Source: Mycoplasmatota bacterium
Lineage (GTDB): Bacteria; Bacillota_I; Bacilli_A; MAG-NZ
DNA length: 64,000 nt
Direction of reading: 5' to 3'
Assembly (NCBI GenBank): GCA_018394315.1
Contig: CP074575.1
Span: forward strand, 868,001 to 932,000
Made by a program: the position numbers and the translations under genes. This document shows, piece by piece, positions 14,513 through 33,422 of the stretch. Under the pieces are notes generated by a model. That model was not told the DNA's origin. It saw only the letters and a list, made by a program, of their open reading frames with translations, and searched no databases. The first letter of the stretch is position 1. Each line of letters starts with the position of its first letter.

Positions 14513-14775
14513 AAAAAAACAACTACTTCCCCCATAATCATGGGACGAATAGTTGCGATATCCGCGGTGCCACCCAAATTGCCTAACTTGACCTCTTTTA
14601 AGTTCTAATAAACCTAAGCAGTATGGTAACGGACTACATCCGACTTAGTCTACTCTCATAAATGATTTCGGTAAGCAACTCGGAGGTGTTCTTCATATAA
14701 AAATTATTACTAGTCTTCCATCGTCACTAGCTTGCTGAAAATAATAGTGAATATTACTTTTCCTCGTCAAAGTAT
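14513..14775 (-). ncRNA. T-box riboswitch with Asn (AAC) specifier
   Basis: Minus strand: T-box AATTTGGGTGGCACCGCGG (14562-14580), terminator CAACTATTCGTCCCATGATTATGGGGGAAGTAGTTG followed by a T-run, and specifier loop GAAG-AAC-A (14688-14690). Confidence 0.93.
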
Positions 14776-14782
14776 TTTCATT

Positions 14783-18928: not shown

Positions 18929-18942
18929 TTTGAAAACTAAAT

Positions 18943-19064
18943 ATTATCTAGAGCAACTGAGGGATAGGCCCTATGACGTTGCAGCAACCCTTATTATTAA
19001 GAAGGTGCTAATTCCTAAAGATAAGAATAATAAAAATATAACTTATCTTATGATAAGTTTTTTT
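18943..19064 (+). ncRNA. SAM-I (S-box) riboswitch with terminator
   Basis: TTATC-TAGAG..GAGGGA..GGCCC..GAC..GCAACC..GGTGCTAATTCC..GATAAG core; terminator AACTTATC-TTAT-GATAAGTT plus T-run; upstream of the methionine ABC transporter. Confidence 0.93.
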
Positions 19065-24758: not shown

Positions 24759-25619
24759 ATGATTAAGACTAATAAAGAATTAATCGTTATGCAAGCAGTA
24801 CAAGGACAAGTTAGCCATCCAAAAGTAAGACAACGAGTTACTGCGGAAGGTAAAACAATTACAGTGCCTAACGTTGGTGGAATTACTTATGGGGTTCATG
24901 TTGGTGATGATGCCTTTGGGTTAATGGTGGATCATTTAGAGCCAGCTGTATCTATGAAGAATACGGATAAAGTTGATAACGTAGGACTTATGACATTAGC
25001 TTGTCCGGGTAATTATGCTAGAGTTATTAGTGGCGAAGCAAAGGGTGATGTTGGATATGTGTTAGGTACACATGGAGGAATTGATCATACTATAGTTGAG
25101 TTTGCAGAAGAGACTTTAGAAAAAATGGTTATCGGAGATAAGATTTTAGTTAAAGGTCATGGTAAAGGACTAGTATTACATGATTACCCAAATGTTGATG
25201 TTATTTCAATTGACCCAGAATTATTAGAAAAAATTGATATAGAGGAAGAAAATGGAAAAGTTGTATTTCCGGTTGTAGCTAAAATACCAGGAGCAGTAAT
25301 GGGTTCTGGTGTTGGAAGTGGTACTAGCCATAGTGGTGACTATGACATTATCACTCATGATAGAGCGTTAATGAATGAACTAGGAATTGATAAGCTTAAG
25401 TTTGGTGATTTTGTATTATTAGAAGATAGTGATAATACTTATGGTTTAGGTGGATACTTCCGTGGGGCTTCTACAATCGGTATAATTGTTCATAGTGATT
25501 GTTTAATTACAGGTCACGGGCCAGGAGTAACAGTTGTTATGACTAGTAAAAAAGGTGATATAGTTGGCAAAATTGATCCAACTGCAAATATTGGGAAATA
25601 CATAAAAGAATCTAAATAA
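24759..25619 (+). CDS. DUF4438-like protein of unknown function
   Basis: KTNKE, GGITY, DHLEPAVS, GSGVG, DYDI, HSDC..GHGPGVT motifs. Confidence 0.8.
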   Translation: MIKTNKELIVMQAVQGQVSHPKVRQRVTAEGKTITVPNVGGITYGVHVGDDAFGLMVDHLEPAVSMKNTDKVDNVGLMTLACPGNYARVISGEAKGDVGYVLGTHGGIDHTIVEFAEETLEKMVIGDKILVKGHGKGLVLHDYPNVDVISIDPELLEKIDIEEENGKVVFPVVAKIPGAVMGSGVGSGTSHSGDYDIITHDRALMNELGIDKLKFGDFVLLEDSDNTYGLGGYFRGASTIGIIVHSDCLITGHGPGVTVVMTSKKGDIVGKIDPTANIGKYIKESK

Positions 25620-25626
25620 TGTAATG

Positions 25627-25662
25627 CACCCCAAAATCCGGAAACGGATCAGGGGTGTTTTT
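25627..25662. terminator. Intrinsic terminator between convergent genes
   Basis: CACCCC..ATCCG-GAAA-CGGAT..GGGGTG followed by TTTTT. Confidence 0.75.
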
Positions 25663-25751
25663 AAATGGCAAAATATAGTGTACATAAGTGAGTTAAAAAT
25701 ATGAGACATGTTGATTAATACCTTTTTTAATTAAGAAAGAATATTGCTGAT

Positions 25752-26651
25752 TTATACTAATATTTCCGAAATCTTCATCTTAAATTCTTTCTCAAAATCA
25801 TCTTTAAAGTGGTTGAATTTATTGTCGTTATTCTCAAGAAATAATGCATAAAAAGACTTTTTAGCTAAAGAAATCGCTTCACTCTTTTTACCAGATAATA
25901 ACTCGGCTAATGCTGCATAGTAATATAAATTACTTAAAGATTTCAATGTTTTATGTTCTAAACAGTAATCTATACCAAGCAACGATATTTCTAAAGACTT
26001 GCTATATTCTCCCGAATACCCCAACAGATGAGAAGTATTTGCATATAAACTAGCTACAATACTAGCTTCATTATGGATATCTTTATTTATATCAATAAGT
26101 TTGTTATACATCTTTATTGTTGATGCCCTAATCCCTTCTTCTGAATCAATCATTGCAACATGCATCATGACATTGAGTTCAACTAAATTTAATGATTGTT
26201 TTTTTATACAATTTTTATAATCAATAAGTTTCATTAATTCTGCTTTAGCAGAACTTCTAGTAATTATATTCAATCTATACTTCGAGACGATTCTTAAATA
26301 GGTTATTAGTTCAACATTTAAATCTGATAATAATGCATTAGGATTTATATCATTGATTATTTTGTAAACGTCACTATACCTGTACTGACTTAATAATCTA
26401 AAACAATTCATTAAATTAGATCTTTCATGATTATGTAAAATATCGTATTTTTGAAATAGGTCAACCACGTCAATTTTAAGTCTCTCTGCAAACATAATTA
26501 ATTTATCATTTGGAATGTAATATTCGCCAGATAAATATCTCTTATATTGTCTAAATGAGCATATACCTTCTATAAATATTTCCTTTGATATTTTTCTTCC
26601 TTTTCTTTCTTCGTCGATAAATATTCCAAATCTTTTCTTAAAATACTGCAA
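25752..26651 (-). CDS. XRE-HTH + TPR transcriptional regulator (RRNPP/Rgg/PlcR-like)
   Basis: N-terminal FGIFIDEERKGRKISKEIFIEGICSFRQYKRYLSG HTH; helical C-terminus with TPR-like units (LYANTSHLLG..EYSKSL..GIDYC..LSNLYYYAA..AISLAKKS). TTG 26651 is the likely start; ORF track starts at 26681. Confidence 0.82.
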   Translation of the reverse strand: MQYFKKRFGIFIDEERKGRKISKEIFIEGICSFRQYKRYLSGEYYIPNDKLIMFAERLKIDVVDLFQKYDILHNHERSNLMNCFRLLSQYRYSDVYKIINDINPNALLSDLNVELITYLRIVSKYRLNIITRSSAKAELMKLIDYKNCIKKQSLNLVELNVMMHVAMIDSEEGIRASTIKMYNKLIDINKDIHNEASIVASLYANTSHLLGYSGEYSKSLEISLLGIDYCLEHKTLKSLSNLYYYAALAELLSGKKSEAISLAKKSFYALFLENNDNKFNHFKDDFEKEFKMKISEILV

Positions 26652-26674
26652 ATTAACACCCACTTCCACAAAAA

Positions 26675-26689
26675 GTGACAAAAATGTCC
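26675..26689. promoter_or_regulatory. Candidate operator GTGACA-N4-TGTCC between regulator and peptide genes
   Basis: Imperfect palindrome in the short divergent intergenic gap. The same 11 fixed bases recur at 6988-7002. Confidence 0.4.
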
Positions 26690-26737
26690 TGTTATTTCTT
26701 ATTATATCATTATAAAATACATAAAGGAGATGATTTT

Positions 26738-26854
26738 ATGAAAAAAAATGTCATTCTATTACTACTAGCATTATTTGTTTTTACAGGTGGCTTTGATATC
26801 GGAACTATACAGCCTCTAGGGTTTGGTGACATACCACATGAAGAGATATACTAG
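26738..26854 (+). CDS. 38-aa secreted pre-peptide, candidate quorum-sensing pheromone precursor
   Basis: SD AAAGGAG; MKKNVILLLLALFVFTGGFDIGTIQPLGFGDIPHEEIY* has a basic N-terminus, hydrophobic core and short polar tail; divergent from the RRNPP-like regulator. Confidence 0.8.
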   Translation: MKKNVILLLLALFVFTGGFDIGTIQPLGFGDIPHEEIY

Positions 26855-27137
26855 TCATCAATTTAAGATTAACTGCTAAATCTTAGCATAAATAATTGAA
26901 CCGAAATTATTGATCGTATGTCTACTAACATGGCATAGGTATATCTGATTTGTATGAAAAGGTAAGAACTTTATTCCTCGTATTCTTTGGGAATTATAGT
27001 TCTCTTTTTCAAACAGATTAGTAAAATCTTCGACTAAAGTTTCAAAATTAAACTTATAAACTTAATAGTAATTATATAACAAAGTATTTAGGTGTCAAAT
27101 TACATGCCATATTTATTTTGAACAGGAGGTTATAACA

Positions 27138-27923
27138 ATGATATTTAATGAAAAATTTTGGGAAAAAGATAATAGCCAGTTAACTGATGGATTACTTCAA
27201 AACGAATTATTAGATGAAGAAAAATCTAGTAAACCTATTATTTTAAGTGGTTTTCCTAATTATAAAATAATTTCTAAAAAAGACAAAGTCAAAAACCCAG
27301 AATTCTTTAAAGACCTGATAAGTGCACTCTCTAAATTAAAGATAATAAGAGGTGAAGATAGTCATACACAGAAAGAAATATTAAAATCATTGATAACTGG
27401 GTTAGAGTTCCATGATAAATATACTAGTGGACATTCTGATGCGGTATCTGTTATTTCACTTAAGATTGGAAAATCGATGGGCTTAACTGATTCAAAAATA
27501 AATGATTTGCATCTAGCCGCTTTAGTACATGATATTGGAAAAATTATCATTCCAACTGATATCTTAAATAAGACTACTAAGTTAACAGAGGAAGAGTTCT
27601 CACTAATTAAAAGTCACTGTAAAGCAGGATTTGATATATTAACAAGAACAACTTCGCTTAATGATATAGCGAATTACGTACTTCATCATCATGAAAGATG
27701 GGATGGTAAAGGTTATCCTAATAGGATAAAAGGAAAACAAATACCTATAATTTCACAGATTATTGCAGTTGCAGATGCCTGGAGTGCAATGACGTCGGAT
27801 AGACCTTATAGGGGAAAACTTGATAAATGTGTTGCGCTAGAAGAACTTCTCCAAAACAGAGGGACGCAATTTTCTCCAGAAGTTGTGGATGCATACACTA
27901 GAGTCCTTAGTATTAAAAGCTAA
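27138..27923 (+). CDS. HD-GYP domain phosphodiesterase (c-di-GMP)
   Basis: HDKYTSGHS, HDIGK, HHERWDGKGYP, VADAWSAMTSDRPYR and GTQF all intact. Confidence 0.92.
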   Translation: MIFNEKFWEKDNSQLTDGLLQNELLDEEKSSKPIILSGFPNYKIISKKDKVKNPEFFKDLISALSKLKIIRGEDSHTQKEILKSLITGLEFHDKYTSGHSDAVSVISLKIGKSMGLTDSKINDLHLAALVHDIGKIIIPTDILNKTTKLTEEEFSLIKSHCKAGFDILTRTTSLNDIANYVLHHHERWDGKGYPNRIKGKQIPIISQIIAVADAWSAMTSDRPYRGKLDKCVALEELLQNRGTQFSPEVVDAYTRVLSIKS

Positions 27924-27949
27924 AATTTCAATAAAATTATGATATGTCT

Positions 27950-27983
27950 GAAATACCCTAGAATTGAGGGGTATTTCTTTTTT
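27950..27983 (+). terminator. Intrinsic terminator
   Basis: GAAATACCC...GGGTATTTC followed by a T-run. Confidence 0.7.
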
Positions 27984-28166
27984 AATTGGTACATGTATAT
28001 TTTACTATTGAAATAGGAGTTTATTTTGTGGAAAAAATCTAATATATGTTTAGTTATTTATATAAATATTTTCTATGTCATTCTAGAAGTCTTAATTTTC
28101 TACAAGAAGAAACAAATTTAATTGTTAAAATACAATAAGTTTAGAAATAGAAAGTATGGAGAGATT

Positions 28167-29354
28167 ATGCTTAGAAGCGAACAAAGGATATCAATTTTAT
28201 TAGGAATAATTTTATTTTTTTATTTTTATCCTTTTCTATTTCCTACAGTGGATGAGTCTTTAGCACCTATAAACTTATATATTATTCCGTCATTTTGGTT
28301 AGTGTTAACTATTTATGTAAGAAGTCTTAATAAGGTAACCTTTAAGGCCAAAAGAAGATTTATGAGCAATATAATCTTATGGGTTTTTATTACAGCTTTC
28401 ATATATTTATTAGTTTTTTTTGCTGCAGGAATTATGGATGGATTTGGAAAGAATCCCTATGATACTAGACCTATTGGAATAATTAAGAATGTATTTATAT
28501 ATGGTTCTGTTTTGATTTTAAAAGAATTTGTAAGACATTATTTAATTAACTCAACTCCTAAAAGGAAGATTATACTTTATGGTACGTTGATCGTATTGGT
28601 ATACAGTGTTATAGATGTTAATATGGTCCATTTCTTGAGTTTGAAAGTTACTGAGGATATTGTCTCTTTTGCCATATCTAAATTTATGGTAGTTATTGCA
28701 CTAAATATATTCTTAACTAATATCGCTTACTTATCTGGATATATCCCCTGTATTATCTTTGTATTCTTGCTCAAATTACCATTATGGACTTTAGAAGTTA
28801 TTCCAAATCTTACATGGCTTTCAACTGCTGTGATTGGGCTGATTATTCCTGTGCTAGGTTTAAGTATAATAAATGATAATTATAAAAAGTTATCTAAAAA
28901 AGTGAAAAAAATTCATTATAAGAAACAAAACTTATACGGATGGGTAATAACAGGATTTATATCGGTATGTATTGTATGGTTTGTAGTAGGAGTATTTCCG
29001 ATTGCCCCAACCGTTATAATTACTGGTAGCATGGAACCAGCTATATATCCGGGAGACGTCAGTATTATTAGAAAAATAAATAAGAGTGATGTTGTTGAAG
29101 GAGACGTTGTTCAGTACTGGACAGGAGACTACTTCATTATCCATAGAGTGATTGATATTTATGAAGAAAATGGAACTACGTATTACGTGACTAAGGGAGA
29201 TAATAACCCAAGTAAAGATAGTAAACCTGTAGAAATAGAACAAATAAAAGGTATACTAATGTACACTATTCCTAAGATAGGAAAACCGGCGTTATTGTTG
29301 AAGTCCAAGTCGGATGAGGATATTAATGAACAGATTATGACTTCAAATGATTGA
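28167..29354 (+). CDS. sipW: Signal peptidase I, SipW/SEC11-type, with multi-pass membrane N-domain
   Basis: Ser-His-Asp type motifs TGSMEP, IIHRV, TKGDNN..D, IPKIG; about 7-8 TM segments upstream. ORF track starts at 28122. Confidence 0.85.
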   Translation: MLRSEQRISILLGIILFFYFYPFLFPTVDESLAPINLYIIPSFWLVLTIYVRSLNKVTFKAKRRFMSNIILWVFITAFIYLLVFFAAGIMDGFGKNPYDTRPIGIIKNVFIYGSVLILKEFVRHYLINSTPKRKIILYGTLIVLVYSVIDVNMVHFLSLKVTEDIVSFAISKFMVVIALNIFLTNIAYLSGYIPCIIFVFLLKLPLWTLEVIPNLTWLSTAVIGLIIPVLGLSIINDNYKKLSKKVKKIHYKKQNLYGWVITGFISVCIVWFVVGVFPIAPTVIITGSMEPAIYPGDVSIIRKINKSDVVEGDVVQYWTGDYFIIHRVIDIYEENGTTYYVTKGDNNPSKDSKPVEIEQIKGILMYTIPKIGKPALLLKSKSDEDINEQIMTSND

Positions 29355-30390
29355 GAGTGAGGAAAATAAAATGATTCAATTAAGTAAGAAAAAGAAGGTT
29401 TCAGTGATAACAGTGTTGAGTTTATTGATTTTATTGTTTGGAATACTCTCCATTTTGAGATACTTTTCTCCAAAAGAGGTGGAAACTGAAGACAGTATTT
29501 ACGATTATAATTTTGAAGGTGCTTTGGATTATTATGTTTATTTAAAACCGAATACCATTTACGATAAACATTACTTAGAAAGTGATAGACTATATATATC
29601 AGAACTGACAGATTTTATAGATGTTAGATTCAATCTAAATTATAGCGCATTAGAAGATGCAGAAATCTCATACAATTACGTTATTTATCCATCCATAGAA
29701 TCAAGTACCGCTCAAAACTCAGATGATGATATTATATGGACAAAGAATTACGACAATGTATCTTCTGCACAGGAAAAATTTGTAGGCAATGAGTTCATCA
29801 TGAGTAATAATTATAAGTTATACTTAGATGATTATATTTCTTTTATTGATGAGGTCTATAAAGAACTAGATATAAATACTAGTAATAATCTTATTATAAA
29901 TTTTAAAGGTAATCTAATTATTGAATATGATGGAAAAATTAGTTCACAGGAGTTTAGCCAAAGGTTAGAAATTCCTTTAAAGCAAAAAATATATAAAATA
30001 ATTAGTGATGAGAATTTTGAAATAAGTGAATCAATTATTGAACTAAATATTGAAACAAGTAGAACAAATATAGTTGCTTTAGTCGTATTTATCTGCTCCA
30101 TAATCATGTTAATTTTATCTATAAAGTTTATTTCTATTAAAGAGCCTAAGACAGATAGAGAAATTACTATTAATAAAATATTCAATGAACATAGTGAAAG
30201 ACTTGTACAATTAGCTACTCTAACCTATGATATACCAAAGTTAATAGTTGTTGATGATTTCAAAGATTTACTTAAAATTGCTGATGAGATAACTCAACCC
30301 ATATTTTACTATATTAAGGATACGAATAATAATAAGATAATAGAATTCTTGGTATTCGATAACGAAAGAAGTTACAGTTTCATACTTTAA
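29347..30390 (+). CDS. DUF5305-like membrane protein (SipW-associated)
   Basis: N-terminal TM, YYVYLKPNTIY, second TM, and tail VDDFKDLLKIADEITQPI; overlaps the sipW stop. Confidence 0.7.
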   Translation: MIESEENKMIQLSKKKKVSVITVLSLLILLFGILSILRYFSPKEVETEDSIYDYNFEGALDYYVYLKPNTIYDKHYLESDRLYISELTDFIDVRFNLNYSALEDAEISYNYVIYPSIESSTAQNSDDDIIWTKNYDNVSSAQEKFVGNEFIMSNNYKLYLDDYISFIDEVYKELDINTSNNLIINFKGNLIIEYDGKISSQEFSQRLEIPLKQKIYKIISDENFEISESIIELNIETSRTNIVALVVFICSIIMLILSIKFISIKEPKTDREITINKIFNEHSERLVQLATLTYDIPKLIVVDDFKDLLKIADEITQPIFYYIKDTNNNKIIEFLVFDNERSYSFIL

Positions 30391-30432
30391 TTAAGATTGT
30401 AATAGATAATGATTAAAAACGGTTAACTAAGG

Positions 30433-30485
30433 AAAAAGAGCCTAAGGAAATGAAGTTGATTCATTTCTCTTAAGACTCTTTTTTA
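30433..30485. terminator. Bidirectional intrinsic terminator
   Basis: AAAAAGAG..GAAATGAA..TTCATTTC..CTCTTTTTT between convergent operons. Confidence 0.75.
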
Positions 30486-30507
30486 GTCTAAGTGCATTGT
30501 TTATAAA

Positions 30508-31176
30508 TTATGGATTTACATTAGGAGCATTAAATTGCTCATATTCAAGTACTACGTCAAACGAAAAACTCTTTTCTTGTGATGGATTTTCTGATTCGGG
30601 AAGTAAGTGAATCTTCAAAGCAAAATCAACACAATCTCCAACATCTAAAGGAACAGTTTCCAACATTCCTGGAGCATAGAAGTAATTATCATTATCACGA
30701 AGTGTCAATACACCAGGTAAGTTAGGTAATGGGTCATCAAAGAAATTCGGTAAGAAACGTATATAAGCTCCAAGTATCAAAGTGTCTAGTAGTTCATTTA
30801 CTTCAGCATCACTTAGATTGTAACCATCAACAGCAACATTAATCAGTCTAATATTTTTGAGTTTAGCTGGAATGGTACCGTTGTTCATGATGCAAGCGGA
30901 CGCATCTGCATATGCACCGGGATAAAGGTTATCAAAATGTACTTGTAATATCTTAGAATTACCAATGATCTCTGAAGTACCTGTATTATATATACCCCAT
31001 TGTGTATTATCTATGCATGGGTTAGGATTTGCACTATCGCATTCAAATATTACAGATAATTCACCTGTTTCAGCCATACCAGTAACAGTTAACGTATCAG
31101 TCCAGTATGCATAAGAAAATCCAGCAACCATTAATGATAGAACAAGTACTGAAAGTAATGTGTACGTCTTTTTCAT
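30508..31176 (-). CDS. SipW-dependent signal-peptide protein, TasA/CalY-like fibre subunit (222 aa)
   Basis: MKK-hydrophobic-GFSYA|YWTDTL.VTG..ETGEL; NLYPG, NNGTIPA; C-terminal F..VLEYEQFN. Confidence 0.8.
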   Translation of the reverse strand: MKKTYTLLSVLVLSLMVAGFSYAYWTDTLTVTGMAETGELSVIFECDSANPNPCIDNTQWGIYNTGTSEIIGNSKILQVHFDNLYPGAYADASACIMNNGTIPAKLKNIRLINVAVDGYNLSDAEVNELLDTLILGAYIRFLPNFFDDPLPNLPGVLTLRDNDNYFYAPGMLETVPLDVGDCVDFALKIHLLPESENPSQEKSFSFDVVLEYEQFNAPNVNP

Positions 31177-31240
31177 ATTCCCTCCTTATCACTCAGATAG
31201 AATAAGTTATTTTATAACCTATTAAATCTAAATAAGTTTA

Positions 31241-31282
31241 GAAAAATAATCGACTAAACTCAGTTAGTGATTAGTCGATTAT
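31241..31282 (-). terminator. Intergenic hairpin/terminator between the two TasA-like genes
   Basis: 12-bp inverted repeat ATAATCGACTAA...TTAGTCGATTAT, followed by a U-tract on the minus strand. Confidence 0.7.
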
Positions 31283-31305
31283 ATTCTTTTTCTAGTTAAA
31301 TAATT

Positions 31306-31815
31306 TTATGGATGTTCGTTAAATTGATCGTAATCTAGTACAAATGTTGCTGATACTGATTCATTTTGAGTTAAATTATCAGCAGCTTCATCGACCCATA
31401 TATGAATCATGAATGGAATCATCTCACCTACGTCTAAGGAATGAGGCAATGGCTGAACGTCAATATAAATATAGCTTTGTAAGTTAGGTGCTAATAAATA
31501 ATCAATAGTTTCTGAAATTTGACCACTTACAGCAGGAATAGTTCCTGTGTTTACGATCATTCCCTCATATAAGAAATGTGCTCCTGGATACAAATTGTCT
31601 AAAGTTAGTTCTATCAGATCATTTTGCTCATTAATCATATATGTATTATAAGGTGAATCAACTTCAACATAACCTGGAGGTGCAAATTCTACTCCGAACT
31701 CACCCGTTGTTGCTGTACCAGTTAAAGTTAAAGTATCAGTCCAGTACGCATACGAGAAACCTGCTGTCATTAATGACAGAACCATGATTGACAACAATAC
31801 ATAAATCTTTTTCAT
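31306..31815 (-). CDS. SipW-dependent signal-peptide protein, TasA/CalY-like fibre subunit (169 aa)
   Basis: MKK-hydrophobic-GFSYA|YWTDTL.LTG..TTGEF; NLYPG, NTGTIPA, ADNLTQ; SD AGGAGG; paralog of 30508-31176. Confidence 0.8.
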   Translation of the reverse strand: MKKIYVLLSIMVLSLMTAGFSYAYWTDTLTLTGTATTGEFGVEFAPPGYVEVDSPYNTYMINEQNDLIELTLDNLYPGAHFLYEGMIVNTGTIPAVSGQISETIDYLLAPNLQSYIYIDVQPLPHSLDVGEMIPFMIHIWVDEAADNLTQNESVSATFVLDYDQFNEHP

Positions 31816-32704
31816 ATTTCCTCCTAAAATTTTATTTATTTTGACTGTGACAACACAGTAAAAACCAAGAATATAAATCTAATTAGGGTAACTTGATGTT
31901 ATTTTGATTGAGTGTTGCTTAACATCTTTTTTTCATATTTTCATTTTTGTAGCTCTTGAGTTCATTTTTTCATTAAATTGTAATCACATTATATTTGGAC
32001 TTATTTAATTATTTGTCGCTTTAAGTCATTGCAAAAAAAATTATTAATTCAATATTTAATTAGTTGATTTCGTGCGTTCGTACTTTGTATAATCAAGAAT
32101 TATAAAATCTATTTGTGTCAATAGATAGGTAATTCTGGTGCAGTTTTACTTGGAAAGTATCTTATTCGATTATTTAATAAGATAATGTAATTTTTTAAGT
32201 TTTATTTAGGAAAATTAAATTTTATTTCTTAATATCATCCTTAATTAAAATTTACAAAAAAATTAAATTTTCCCAATGATTATATTCTCCTAGAAAATAT
32301 ATGTGTGAATTTCTATGAATATTCATAGTAACTAGAAAGAATAGTATTTGTATGGTAATTTGCTTCATAGTAGTTTTATTTCTTAGATTTCTTGAACATC
32401 TAATAGAGTGTAAGCATTTTGCTCTTATTTCCCGGTTTTATAAGTATATGTACCAAAATAGGTAAATATTAGGAGACACTCTTAGCAAATAATAAATATG
32501 AATAATTACTACGAAGTTATAGTCGATTGAATGTAAAAACTGTCAAATATCTAGATAATAGTGAGTATTTGATTGTTTCTTGTATAAATGTTTTTTCAGT
32601 TTAGAAAGTAATTCGAATAAGAATTCTAAAGATATTGAGTAATAATCGATTACTAAGATTGTAGTGAGTGTGAGCGATTAATCTAAGTGAAAAATGAAAT
32701 AGAA

Positions 32705-32801
32705 TTGACTTTTTGATATTTCGCTGTTATCATTTGTATAAGTTAATATGTTTTCAGAGTTTAGAGAGATAGTATTTTTTTGAAAACTATCTCTTATTTT
32801 T
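32705..32801 (+). promoter_or_regulatory. glpP promoter and GlpP-type antiterminated leader
   Basis: TTGACT-17-TATCAT; AAGTTAATAT..TTTTCAGAG..TAGAG overlaps the terminator AGAGATAGT...ACTATCTCT-TATTTTT. Confidence 0.65.
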
Positions 32802-32888
32802 ATTATTAATAGCGCTGGTATGGCGTGAATCATGAGTTTATCATATACATAAATGAGTGTAACTTTAAGTTTAAAGGAGGCGGAAGTT

Positions 32889-33422
32889 GTGAATCAAAGA
32901 ATAATACCCGCGATTACTTCAGTAAAGAAATTTGAAAAGTTTCTTGAGACCGATTATGAATACTGCGTTTTAATGAATTTACATATCTCACTACTAAAAA
33001 CTCTCGTTGAGAAAGCGCATGATAAAGGTAAGAAGTGTTTTTTACATCTTGATTTAATTAATGGGATCTCGAGTGATGAGTATGGTGTTGAGTATGCTGT
33101 TCAGCATATTAAGATAGATGGTATAGTATCTACAAGAAACTCTGTGATAAAAGCAGCTCAAAGGAAAAAAATAGTTTCTATTTACCGGATTTTCTTAATA
33201 GATAGTATGTCGTTAAACCGTAGTTTAGAAAAGCTAGCACAACTAAAGCCAGATTATGTTGAGTTACTTCCTGCGATTGCTTTTGATGTTATGTCTAGAG
33301 TGAAAAAAGAAACTGATATACCGATTATTGGTGGTGGATTAATTGCTTCAAGGGAAGATATAGATAGGTGTATAGCTAGTGGGATGATTGCTGTTACCAC
33401 TAGTAATCGAGTTTTATGGTAA
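32889..33422 (+). CDS. glpP: Glycerol-3-phosphate-responsive antiterminator
   Basis: IIPAI, HLDLINGI, DGIVSTR, RIFLIDS, PDYVELLP, PIIGGGLI, AVTTS..LW. SD AAGGAGG before GTG 32889. Confidence 0.93.
   Translation: MNQRIIPAITSVKKFEKFLETDYEYCVLMNLHISLLKTLVEKAHDKGKKCFLHLDLINGISSDEYGVEYAVQHIKIDGIVSTRNSVIKAAQRKKIVSIYRIFLIDSMSLNRSLEKLAQLKPDYVELLPAIAFDVMSRVKKETDIPIIGGGLIASREDIDRCIASGMIAVTTSNRVLW

Follow-up and report, generated by a model that had tools for sequence, protein, structure and literature searches.

Adjacent peptide-signalling and AbpX-like fibre genes in a Mycoplasmatota genome are probably separate modules

Introduction

Peptide quorum-sensing pairs of the RRNPP kind, HD-GYP phosphodiesterases and surface fibres matured by a dedicated SipW-type signal peptidase are represented side by side in a block of about 6 kb (25752..31815) of a Mycoplasmatota genome. 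The block lies in a stretch of 64,000 nucleotides (nt), referred to here as the window, which corresponds to positions 868,001 to 932,000 of contig CP074575.1 (assembly GCA_018394315.1). The host genome, G000 (other G numbers denote related genomes and L numbers fetched loci), is a single contig of 2.17 Mb with a completeness of 93.6%, and the GC content of the window is approximately 30%. An original prediction made from the DNA held that the block links cell density and the turnover of cyclic di-GMP (c-di-GMP) to fibre production. Comparison with the closest described systems and with related genomes suggests that this proposed density-to-fibre system is probably a neighbourhood and not one machine.

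The signalling half of the block resembles the RRNPP/RRNPPA systems Rgg/SHP, PlcR/PapR and PrgX/PrgQ, with which it shares, as judged by structure matches, a receptor built of a helix-turn-helix (HTH) and a tetratricopeptide-repeat (TPR)-like domain, as well as a small secreted propeptide encoded beside the receptor. In Rgg/SHP loci the two genes are divergent and the regulated gene lies behind the peptide gene, the same layout as that found here, and the overlapping divergent transcription of prgX/prgQ is likewise comparable to the present arrangement. The locus differs from the Rgg, PlcR and PrgX systems in the Sec-type signal peptide and acidic, proline-containing tail of its propeptide, and in its candidate output, a cyclic-dinucleotide phosphodiesterase. 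A parallel for such an output is the DSF-RpfC-RpfG system of Xanthomonas, in which a density signal (DSF, diffusible signal factor) leads to hydrolysis of c-di-GMP by an HD-GYP protein. However, DSF is a fatty acid that is sensed by a membrane kinase, which phosphorylates RpfG, whereas in the present case enzyme abundance would be influenced by a peptide together with a cytoplasmic transcription factor. A literature search found no paper linking RRNPP peptide quorum sensing to HD-GYP or cyclic-dinucleotide turnover.

Among fibre systems, the tapA-sipW-tasA operon of Bacillus subtilis shares with the locus a dedicated archaeal-type peptidase, the kind of subunit signal peptide and apparently a beta-sandwich subunit fold (Z 7.0, tied with unrelated beta-sandwiches). 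It differs in that no TapA is encoded here, while the peptidase falls under the SipW equivalog cut-off, carries an extra polytopic domain and has a DUF5305 partner. The proposed subunit cleavage here, between ...SYA and YWTD, compares with that of TasA, between ...A and FFSD.

Closer counterparts are the AbpX loci reported from archaea and bacteria, including Bacillota, in which a ten-helix signal peptidase is accompanied by a DUF5305 accessory protein (bioRxiv 10.64898/2026.01.04.697558, main text). As presented in that text, AbpX loci (Pyrodictium abyssi, PDB 9SJ2/9RHP; Bacillota; Chloroflexota) encode small secreted subunits, matched by profile here (E 1e-13), and combine a dedicated signal peptidase I of about ten helices, a DUF5305 accessory and genes for major and minor subunits, as does the present locus. 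Whereas the subunit genes of most related loci lie upstream of the peptidase operon in the same direction, those of the present locus diverge from it; a further difference from AbpX loci is that neither G000 nor its relative G004 encodes a large tip or anchor protein. A CPBP, Rce1 or CAAX fold of the membrane domain goes unmentioned in the preprint's main text, and no publication joining CPBP and SipW was among those listed in a literature search. Haloarchaeal Tat-fimbriae (Tafi; Tat, twin-arginine translocation) pair the signal peptidase TafD with TafG, a DUF5305 protein, and TafD is required for pilin processing, according to PMC11821415 and PMC12337348. There, too, a peptidase and DUF5305 stand beside strand-donating pilins (TafA/TafE), as here, but the signals are of the Tat type and the peptidase domain of TafD is N-terminal, with four helices, whereas here the signals are of the Sec/SipW type and the peptidase is C-terminal to 9-10 helices.

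The combination had originally not been recognised as a described system. For the fibre half this no longer holds, as AbpX and Tafi were published in 2025-2026, while the signalling and HD-GYP half gains comparative support from the results below.

Probable separation of the signalling genes from the fibre cassette

The open reading frame (ORF) listing, together with Pfam and TIGR family scans, bore out the gene identities first assigned to the block and the family knowledge cited with them, and all seven genes (regulator, propeptide, HD-GYP, signal peptidase, DUF5305 and two subunits) were recovered at their expected positions and correctly typed. To compare gene neighbourhoods, 34 cassette loci were fetched, the window's own being excluded. 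Of 399 genomes of the class, 28 contain DUF5305 at a score above the Pfam cut-off, and in one family 24 of 49 genomes have a match at E<=0.001. A SipW-type ORF of 354-395 amino acids (aa) lies beside DUF5305 in 28/34 loci, 22 of them with an N-domain detectably homologous to that of the window, and an iterated profile detected one or more AbpX-like ORFs in 28/34, most often immediately before the peptidase gene.

The signalling genes do not accompany these cassettes. A profile of ten family regulators detected an RRNPP regulator in 0/34 loci even at E<=10; the same profile recovered all six regulator ORFs in five loci that had not been used for building it. An HD-domain gene was found in one locus of the 34, where it encodes a 544-aa protein approximately 6 kb from the DUF5305 gene. 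G004, a member of the same family as G000, retains all four cassette genes in the same divergent layout (peptidase 65% and DUF5305 50% identical), with insertion sequence (IS) transposase genes occupying the place of the regulator, peptide and HD-GYP genes of G000; neither a regulator nor an HD-GYP gene adjoins its cassette. Conversely, no fibre genes were found in the read loci of a six-genome clade in which the regulator and an HD-GYP gene are adjacent (described below). In relatives there is thus no linkage between the regulator/peptide block and the sipW-TasA block, which was the first of the two outcomes named with the original prediction as refuting it, and the synteny between the signalling genes and the sipW and subunit genes, on which a joint system would depend, did not hold up. 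Coupled with the lack of a local c-di-GMP riboswitch, the single copy of the candidate operator and the orphan status of the regulator, these results argue against a block that links density and c-di-GMP to fibres, and control of the fibre genes by the signalling half is considered unlikely.

Two further observations concern the fetched cassette loci. The transposase-like ORFs of G004 beside the peptidase gene span L026:11074-13727. At the DUF5305 locus L078 (G165:C49), the peptidase resembles the archaeal TafD in lacking an N-domain and in extending far beyond its C-terminal side, and the alignment on which folding was based excludes it.

The RRNPP-type regulator

The regulator gene (25752..26681, minus strand) encodes a 309-aa RRNPP-type, PlcR/Rgg-like transcription regulator. 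Its residues 94-278 match Pfam RNPP_C (E 9.9e-11; 42 bits, cut-off 26.5), which corresponds to the TPR-like peptide-binding domain. No Pfam HTH match was obtained for the regulator at E<=0.01; the N-terminal HTH was assigned because a profile of the regulator family aligns to the HTH regions of known structures. Positions 17-121 of the profile align to residues 4-108 of Rgg structures (E 2.6e-9), and the profile aligns to nearly the whole of PlcR 2qfc (E 3e-8) and also matches ComR and PrgX structures, HTH regions included. Both parts of the HTH-TPR regulator originally proposed are consistent with these matches.

As a genome-wide probe, Pfam RNPP_C gave matches in only 13 genomes out of 400 and overlooked the greater part of the family, and an own profile was used instead. 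With this profile, family members were located in 87 of the 399 genomes of the class; there were 164 matches in total, and the 150 listed form the basis of the locus comparisons below. The G000 regulator is the sole member of the family found in its genome (one match) and groups weakly with the G021 regulators in the tree (support 85/81).

Propeptide and promoter geometry

Divergent from the regulator gene lies a gene for a 38-aa peptide (26738..26854, plus strand), identified by its ribosome-binding site (RBS), divergent position and relatives, with a Sec-type signal peptide followed by a C-terminal candidate pheromone. The RBS (AAAGGAG) is located 8 nt before the ORF, the N-terminus is signal-peptide-like and the last ten residues are FGDIPHEEIY. 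In G005, from the same family as G000, a 41-aa peptide carries YGDLPYEELV near its end, identical at five of ten positions and similar at four. Divergent secreted propeptides were also found beside related regulators in G021 (43 and 46 aa, at two loci) and G158 (45 aa), so that the propeptides at G005, G021a, G021c and G158 have in common with that of G000 the divergent position, the 38-46 aa size class and a signal peptide followed by an acidic/proline tail. Because related regulators share this layout, one of them with a near-matching C-terminus, the 38-aa ORF is a credible propeptide, in keeping with the divergent secreted peptide that had originally been claimed.

Other regulators of the family are accompanied by a different kind of precursor. 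In G035, G193, G200, G228, G284, G396 and G186, the product of the divergent gene consists of a signal peptide and, after it, an acidic, proline-containing unit of 13 residues (e.g. LDFDDEDFPEFIN) that is present in 4-10 exact tandem copies. These genes, located at L109:3510-3899(-), L123:2658-3161(-), L124:4994-5332(+), L125:5045-5335(+), L126:1450-1755(-), L127:5085-5429(+) and L129:3411-3731(+), look like multi-copy pheromone precursors. Repeated propeptides are known in the NprR, PlcR, AimR and Rap subfamilies, with none given for Rgg, ComR and PrgX in the accessible portions of PMC9765709. At the seven loci (L109, L123-L127 and L129) a strongly conserved box, ATGACATAT(A/C)CGC(C/T)GT, is located approximately 60-90 nt before the precursor starts and is a candidate operator, and an AT-rich palindrome just before the RBS of the precursor genes is a candidate leader.

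The start codons of the regulator and propeptide genes in G000 are only 56 bp apart, and both promoters must therefore lie inside each other's genes or beyond. An inverted repeat, GTGACA-N4-TGTCCT (26675..26691), read from the DNA, is a candidate operator; it immediately precedes the -35 region of the likely propeptide promoter, overlaps the first codons of the regulator, and TGACA-type half-sites also occur upstream of related propeptide genes. On the minus strand, a perfect sigma-70 consensus (TTGACA, 16 nt, TATAAT; 27071..27098) matches at 12/12 positions and is the only such site in 25400-33000. It is situated just upstream of the HD-GYP start and points towards the propeptide and regulator genes, and would yield a transcript antisense to the propeptide gene. 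Transcription of regulator and propeptide is likely to be overlapping and mutually antisense. Between the propeptide and HD-GYP genes, a long stable hairpin followed by a U run (26945..27021, plus strand; fold of 26850-27140, z -2.6) is possibly a terminator or attenuator.

The HD-GYP enzyme and its link to the peptide pair

The gene downstream of the propeptide (27138..27923, plus strand) encodes a predicted stand-alone HD-GYP phosphodiesterase of 261 aa. The match to Pfam HD_5 (E 2.2e-38) takes in the profile from position 7 to its end at position 170, and the translation shows both the HD and the HHHERWDGKGYP motif, in agreement with the enzyme having been called intact; the N-terminal ~90 aa are without a family match. 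The closest solved HD-GYP proteins are V-cGAP3 (1.1e-37) and, next, the c-di-GMP enzyme PmGH (1e-28).

G000 contains seven HD_5 genes, and that of the block is one of only two not fused to GGDEF. The HD-GYP domains of the other five (283873-284856, 634788-635768, 778444-779430, 1107227-1108300 and 1788446-1789438) are fused to GGDEF in single proteins of 548-1067 aa. Eight GGDEF matches and at least three Opp-type binding proteins were found in the genome, along with two c-di-GMP-I riboswitches outside the window (loci L130 and L131; 1591155-1591237 and 2022549-2022631, both on the minus strand). One riboswitch precedes genes for surface proteins of 1259 aa and 564 aa, and the other precedes a polysaccharide-synthesis and sulfate-activation operon (CapD-like, CysC/CysQ, CysD and CysN-like). 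As far as family matches indicate, G000 has the components required by a peptide/c-di-GMP circuit, namely GGDEF proteins, Opp-type binding proteins and riboswitches. No c-di-GMP-II riboswitch was found in G000, no c-di-GMP riboswitch was found in the window at gathering thresholds, and neither the c-di-GMP-I nor the c-di-GMP-II class was found in 25400-33000 even at E<=5.

Two comparisons bear on whether the peptide pair controls the enzyme. First, at four related loci (G005, G021a, G021c and G186) the gene right behind the propeptide is co-oriented with it and encodes a protein of 91-97 aa (L113:6630-6923(-), L111:9290-9580(+), L112:8138-8413(+) and L129:3776-4051(+)). These proteins form a conserved family with no Pfam match and no signal peptide and are presumed to be the regulated target at their loci; in G000 the slot is filled by the HD-GYP gene. 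Second, regulator coordinates were compared with HD_5 coordinates in 86 regulator-bearing genomes, among the matches listed. In six genomes of one family (f19), belonging to two genera, a precursor, a regulator and a short HD-GYP gene are adjacent, again among the matches listed. The f19 enzymes are stand-alone HD-GYP proteins of 215-281 aa, and their genes follow the regulator gene at a distance of 0.2-0.5 kb and share its strand; the tandem-repeat precursor is on the opposite side of the regulator from the HD-GYP gene, and the flanking genes vary among loci. In the tree the six f19 regulators group together in a single clade (support 100/99), outside which the G000 regulator falls, and the association of regulator and HD-GYP therefore arose at least twice. 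Spacings of 3.4 kb (G186) and 2.2 kb (G297) between regulator and HD-GYP genes were not counted as adjacent. These findings suggest that peptide control of the HD-GYP enzyme is plausible and somewhat likely.

The fused signal peptidase and DUF5305

The peptidase ORF as listed (28122-29354, plus strand) comprises 410 aa, of which only residues 275-392 match TIGR02228 sigpep_I_arch (77.8 bits, cut-off 51.85). From the alignment and an Atlas record, translation likely starts at residue 16 (28167), giving a protein of 395 aa (28167..29354) in which a polytopic, CPBP/Rce1-like membrane domain is fused to a SipW/archaeal-type signal peptidase I. The identification of a SipW-type peptidase stands, with a shifted start and the addition of this polytopic domain of ~260 aa. 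Against the SipW equivalog NF046067 the protein scores 57.1 bits and does not reach the cut-off of 190; by this measure it is SipW-like and not a SipW orthologue.

Among 28 homologues, S303, H341, D360 and D366 are among the invariant residues of the peptidase part, S303 and H341 corresponding to the Ser/His catalytic pair expected of an S26B-type domain, while in the membrane domain only G103, E135 and R138 are invariant, the latter two forming a Glu-x-x-Arg pair. The AlphaFold2 (AF2) model of the fusion has a predicted local distance difference test (pLDDT) score of 84 and shows about nine helices before the peptidase. With VIA-align, residues 14-258 of the N-domain superposed on SpdC with Z 13.9 (231/248 residues) and on Rce1 with Z 11.6 (224/251), the next helical match reaching Z 6.8; the C-terminal peptidase part matched human SEC11C (Z 12.2) and SipA (Z 11.3). 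The N-domain thus resembles the intramembrane CPBP/Rce1/SpdC (pseudo)proteases, whose fold has eight helices, in that it superposes as a whole and conserves the Glu-x-x-Arg pair, and differs from them in its fusion to a signal peptidase and its lack of sequence matches and conserved histidines. Two results count against the assignment: none of the 28 fusion members matches any CPBP Pfam model at E<=1, leaving CPBP as fold evidence only, and a profile of the N-domain matches no PDB sequence at E<=10. The domain is accordingly described, on the strength of the model, as appearing to have a CPBP/Rce1-like fold, and membership of the CPBP family is not asserted.

CPBP enzymes use catalytic motifs with a glutamate and two histidines, a pattern that the N-domain does not show, there being no conserved histidine in the membrane domain among the 28 homologues. 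The domain is probably non-catalytic like SpdC. Because the Glu/Arg pair is kept and no CPBP-enzyme histidines are conserved, a scaffold is more likely than a second protease. The Atlas contains clusters of the fusion (397-404 aa) as well as clusters in which the membrane domain stands alone (221-283 aa).

The next gene (29347..30390, plus strand) encodes the DUF5305 membrane protein that had been expected at this position (Pfam PF17231, E 5.7e-23; 81.9 bits, cut-off 29), whose start is probably an internal ATG at 29371. DUF5305 directly follows a long peptidase gene in most related loci. A role for DUF5305 as a signal-peptidase accessory has been proposed in PMC11821415 and in bioRxiv 10.64898/2026.01.04.697558.

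Fibre subunits

The two remaining genes encode AbpX-like subunits of the TasA superfamily, of 222 aa (30508..31176, minus strand) and 169 aa (31306..31815, minus strand). Consistent with their description as two paralogous SipW-substrate proteins, they are 42% identical and both secreted, and they score 23.5 and 18.2 bits, respectively, against TIGR04088, the model for SipW-dependent signal peptides (cut-off 19, which the shorter protein just fails to reach). The 169-aa protein is probably the major subunit, because its gene comes first, carries a consensus RBS and has a terminator behind it; the 222-aa protein is probably the minor subunit.

A subunit profile of 15 sequences (the two window paralogues and 13 relatives) was searched against the PDB and matched AbpX (9sj2, 1.1e-13; 9rhp, 5.4e-8) and, weakly, TasA (8aur/5of1, 0.012). 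The AF2 model of the 222-aa subunit (pLDDT 81) gave Z 7.0 against TasA, as fibre and as monomer alike, 6.8 against the thread protein Saci 0406 and 6.7 against AbpA, values that tie with those of unrelated beta-sandwiches (Z 6-7.3). Foldseek returned weak, mixed matches, with probability 1.00 and a template modelling (TM) score of 0.40 to 8aur. The fold scores being tied with those of generic beta-sandwiches, the AbpX assignment rests on the sequence profile.

The leader of the major-subunit gene contains a palindrome, ACTGTG-N4-CACAGT (31844..31859, minus strand; L026:7302-7317 in G004); apart from it, the upstream regions of G000 and G004 share no clearly conserved non-coding block. G004 also has an apparent remnant of a third AbpX-like gene upstream of its subunit genes (L026:5980-6650). 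Many small-genome relatives encode an AbpX-profile-matching protein of ~620-730 aa after DUF5305 (L027:4337-6517(-), L100:108-2189(-), L106:9715-11586(+) and L086:9840-11717(+)), which G000 and G004 are without and which may be a tip or adhesin subunit.

Transcript boundaries

An intrinsic terminator after the upstream DUF4438 gene (25626..25658, plus strand; a GC-rich hairpin then a U run; fold of 25615-25760, z -3.1) forms the left boundary of the block, and a gap of 1 kb (31816-32852) is present on the right, so that both proposed bounds were found. A second intrinsic terminator, with a 10-bp stem and T run, separates the HD-GYP gene from the fibre cassette (27950..27977, plus strand). A bidirectional terminator hairpin is located between the convergent DUF5305 and 222-aa subunit genes (30432..30483, unstranded; fold of 30385-30515, z -3.1), and the two subunit genes are separated by another terminator hairpin, also with a U run (31249..31279, minus strand; fold z -5.1), to which G004 has an equivalent at the same place. 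The terminator at 27950-27977 and three further hairpins found by folding fit the earlier view that the block would be split into several transcripts.

Proposed mechanism and alternative explanations

The explanation favoured here, with modest confidence, is that the block consists of two modules of separate descent, in which the peptide pair likely switches on the HD-GYP gene and the AbpX cassette is predicted to build a donor-strand fibre alone. In the signalling module, the propeptide would be exported by Sec and trimmed to its C-terminal acidic, proline-containing peptide, re-imported via one of the Opp-type systems and bound by the TPR-like domain of the regulator. The regulator would then act at the inverted repeat 26675-26691 to raise transcription of the propeptide gene and, by read-through of the hairpin at 26945-27021, of the HD-GYP gene as well. 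The enzyme would lower c-di-GMP, or possibly 3'3'-cyclic GMP-AMP (3'3'-cGAMP), and a drop in c-di-GMP would act on the two c-di-GMP-I riboswitch operons, for large surface proteins and for polysaccharide/sulfation functions. In the fibre module, the fused peptidase and DUF5305 would remove the SipW-type signal peptides of the 169-aa and 222-aa subunits, which, by analogy with the family, would polymerise by strand donation into a fibre.

Several observations weigh against this explanation. The closest solved HD-GYP protein, V-cGAP3, is specific for 3'3'-cGAMP, leaving c-di-GMP or 3'3'-cGAMP as the candidate substrate, and no PilZ protein was found in G000 (93.6% complete). The regulator is an orphan: among 40 related genomes the best relative is 29% identical, and a single-protein search found no close relative in genome or metagenome contig collections. 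The same-genus genome G001 is only 55% complete and has its cassette on a 2.4-kb contig, which makes it not decisive, and the adjacency in G000 could reflect a lineage-specific regulatory link invisible to synteny. The stable U-run hairpin at 26945-27021 separates the propeptide and HD-GYP genes, the HD-GYP gene has its own strong RBS and may be a separate unit, and the candidate operator occurs only once in the window, with no further copy upstream of the HD-GYP gene. Finally, by a rough base rate, only two independent regulator/HD-GYP adjacencies were found, compared with approximately one expected by chance among ~163 matches. With adjacency numbers near chance, the case for peptide control therefore rests on the conservation of the f19 trio and on the slot argument.

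The last of these observations (the hairpin, the RBS, the restriction of the operator to the propeptide promoter and the near-chance number of adjacencies) would also be expected if the regulator and propeptide were a genuine pair that autoregulates and controls unlinked genes, with the HD-GYP gene an unrelated neighbour under its own promoter. Chance proximity of this kind does occur, as in G034, where a regulator and an HD-GYP gene are 5 kb apart with four unrelated genes between them, a case taken as coincidence. An unrelated neighbour is nevertheless rather unlikely, given that the HD-GYP gene fills the exact slot of the co-oriented downstream gene of four related loci, that the f19 clade keeps the trio while its flanks change, and that the HD-GYP proteins of both G000 and f19 are of the rarer stand-alone short type.

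A single integrated system, in which the peptide-regulator pair and the HD-GYP enzyme control the fibre cassette via c-di-GMP and density sets fibre production, is judged improbable. All parts are contiguous within 6 kb in G000, the trio immediately precedes the peptidase operon, leaving ~190 bp for a promoter, and the 1-kb leader before the subunit genes could house regulatory sites; moreover, c-di-GMP commonly governs adhesins and matrix. However, an RRNPP regulator accompanies 0/34 cassettes and an HD-domain gene, 6 kb off, only 1/34, the G004 cassette is without either, and the six-genome regulator/HD-GYP clade lacks fibre genes in its read loci. Within G000, a terminator stands between the HD-GYP gene and the cassette, no c-di-GMP-I/II riboswitch was found in 25400-33000 at E<=5, yet two occur elsewhere in the genome, and the candidate operator has no second copy.

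It is highly improbable that the 38-aa ORF is not a pheromone gene (being a chance ORF or encoding some other small membrane or secreted peptide) and that the regulator senses something else, for although the peptide has no family match and its maturation and binding are predictions only, its consensus RBS, the recurrence of the divergent position, the 38-46 aa size and the signal plus acidic/proline tail at G005, G021a, G021c and G158, and the resemblance of its last ten residues to the G005 stretch (five identical and four similar positions) all argue otherwise.

If a peptide circuit wired to an HD-GYP gene, having arisen at least twice, has here been placed before an AbpX cassette, then density, c-di-GMP, the riboswitch operons and the fibres would be switched together; this outcome is regarded as decidedly improbable.

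Other features of the window

Elsewhere in the window, a T-box leader (14538-14779, minus strand; 116.9 bits) and an S-adenosylmethionine (SAM) riboswitch (18941-19027, plus strand; 74.2 bits) were detected. A 20-nt motif shared by positions 27018, 31238 and 32601 was rejected as a regulatory candidate: the pattern had been derived from those very copies, the copy count was reached in 3 of 100 shuffles, and the copy at 31238 is one arm of a terminator hairpin, which in G004 differs in sequence.

Conclusions

The fibre cassette is a new member of the AbpX kind described in 2025-2026, in a Mycoplasmatota relative, and what is new here is the CPBP/Rce1-like fold that the N-domain of its peptidase appears to have. 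The regulator, propeptide and HD-GYP trio is interpreted, from gene content and comparison, as RRNPP signalling with a plausible cyclic-dinucleotide output. Adjacency in one genome is an insufficient guide to function, as synteny separates the two halves here. The fold suggests how dedicated peptidases may hold substrates or partners, with E135 and R138 as testable residues. The range of RRNPP propeptides is widened by the divergent Sec-type layout and by the tandem-repeat precursors. If correct, a peptide circuit driving an HD-GYP enzyme would be a direct link from Gram-positive-type peptide quorum sensing to cyclic-dinucleotide turnover.

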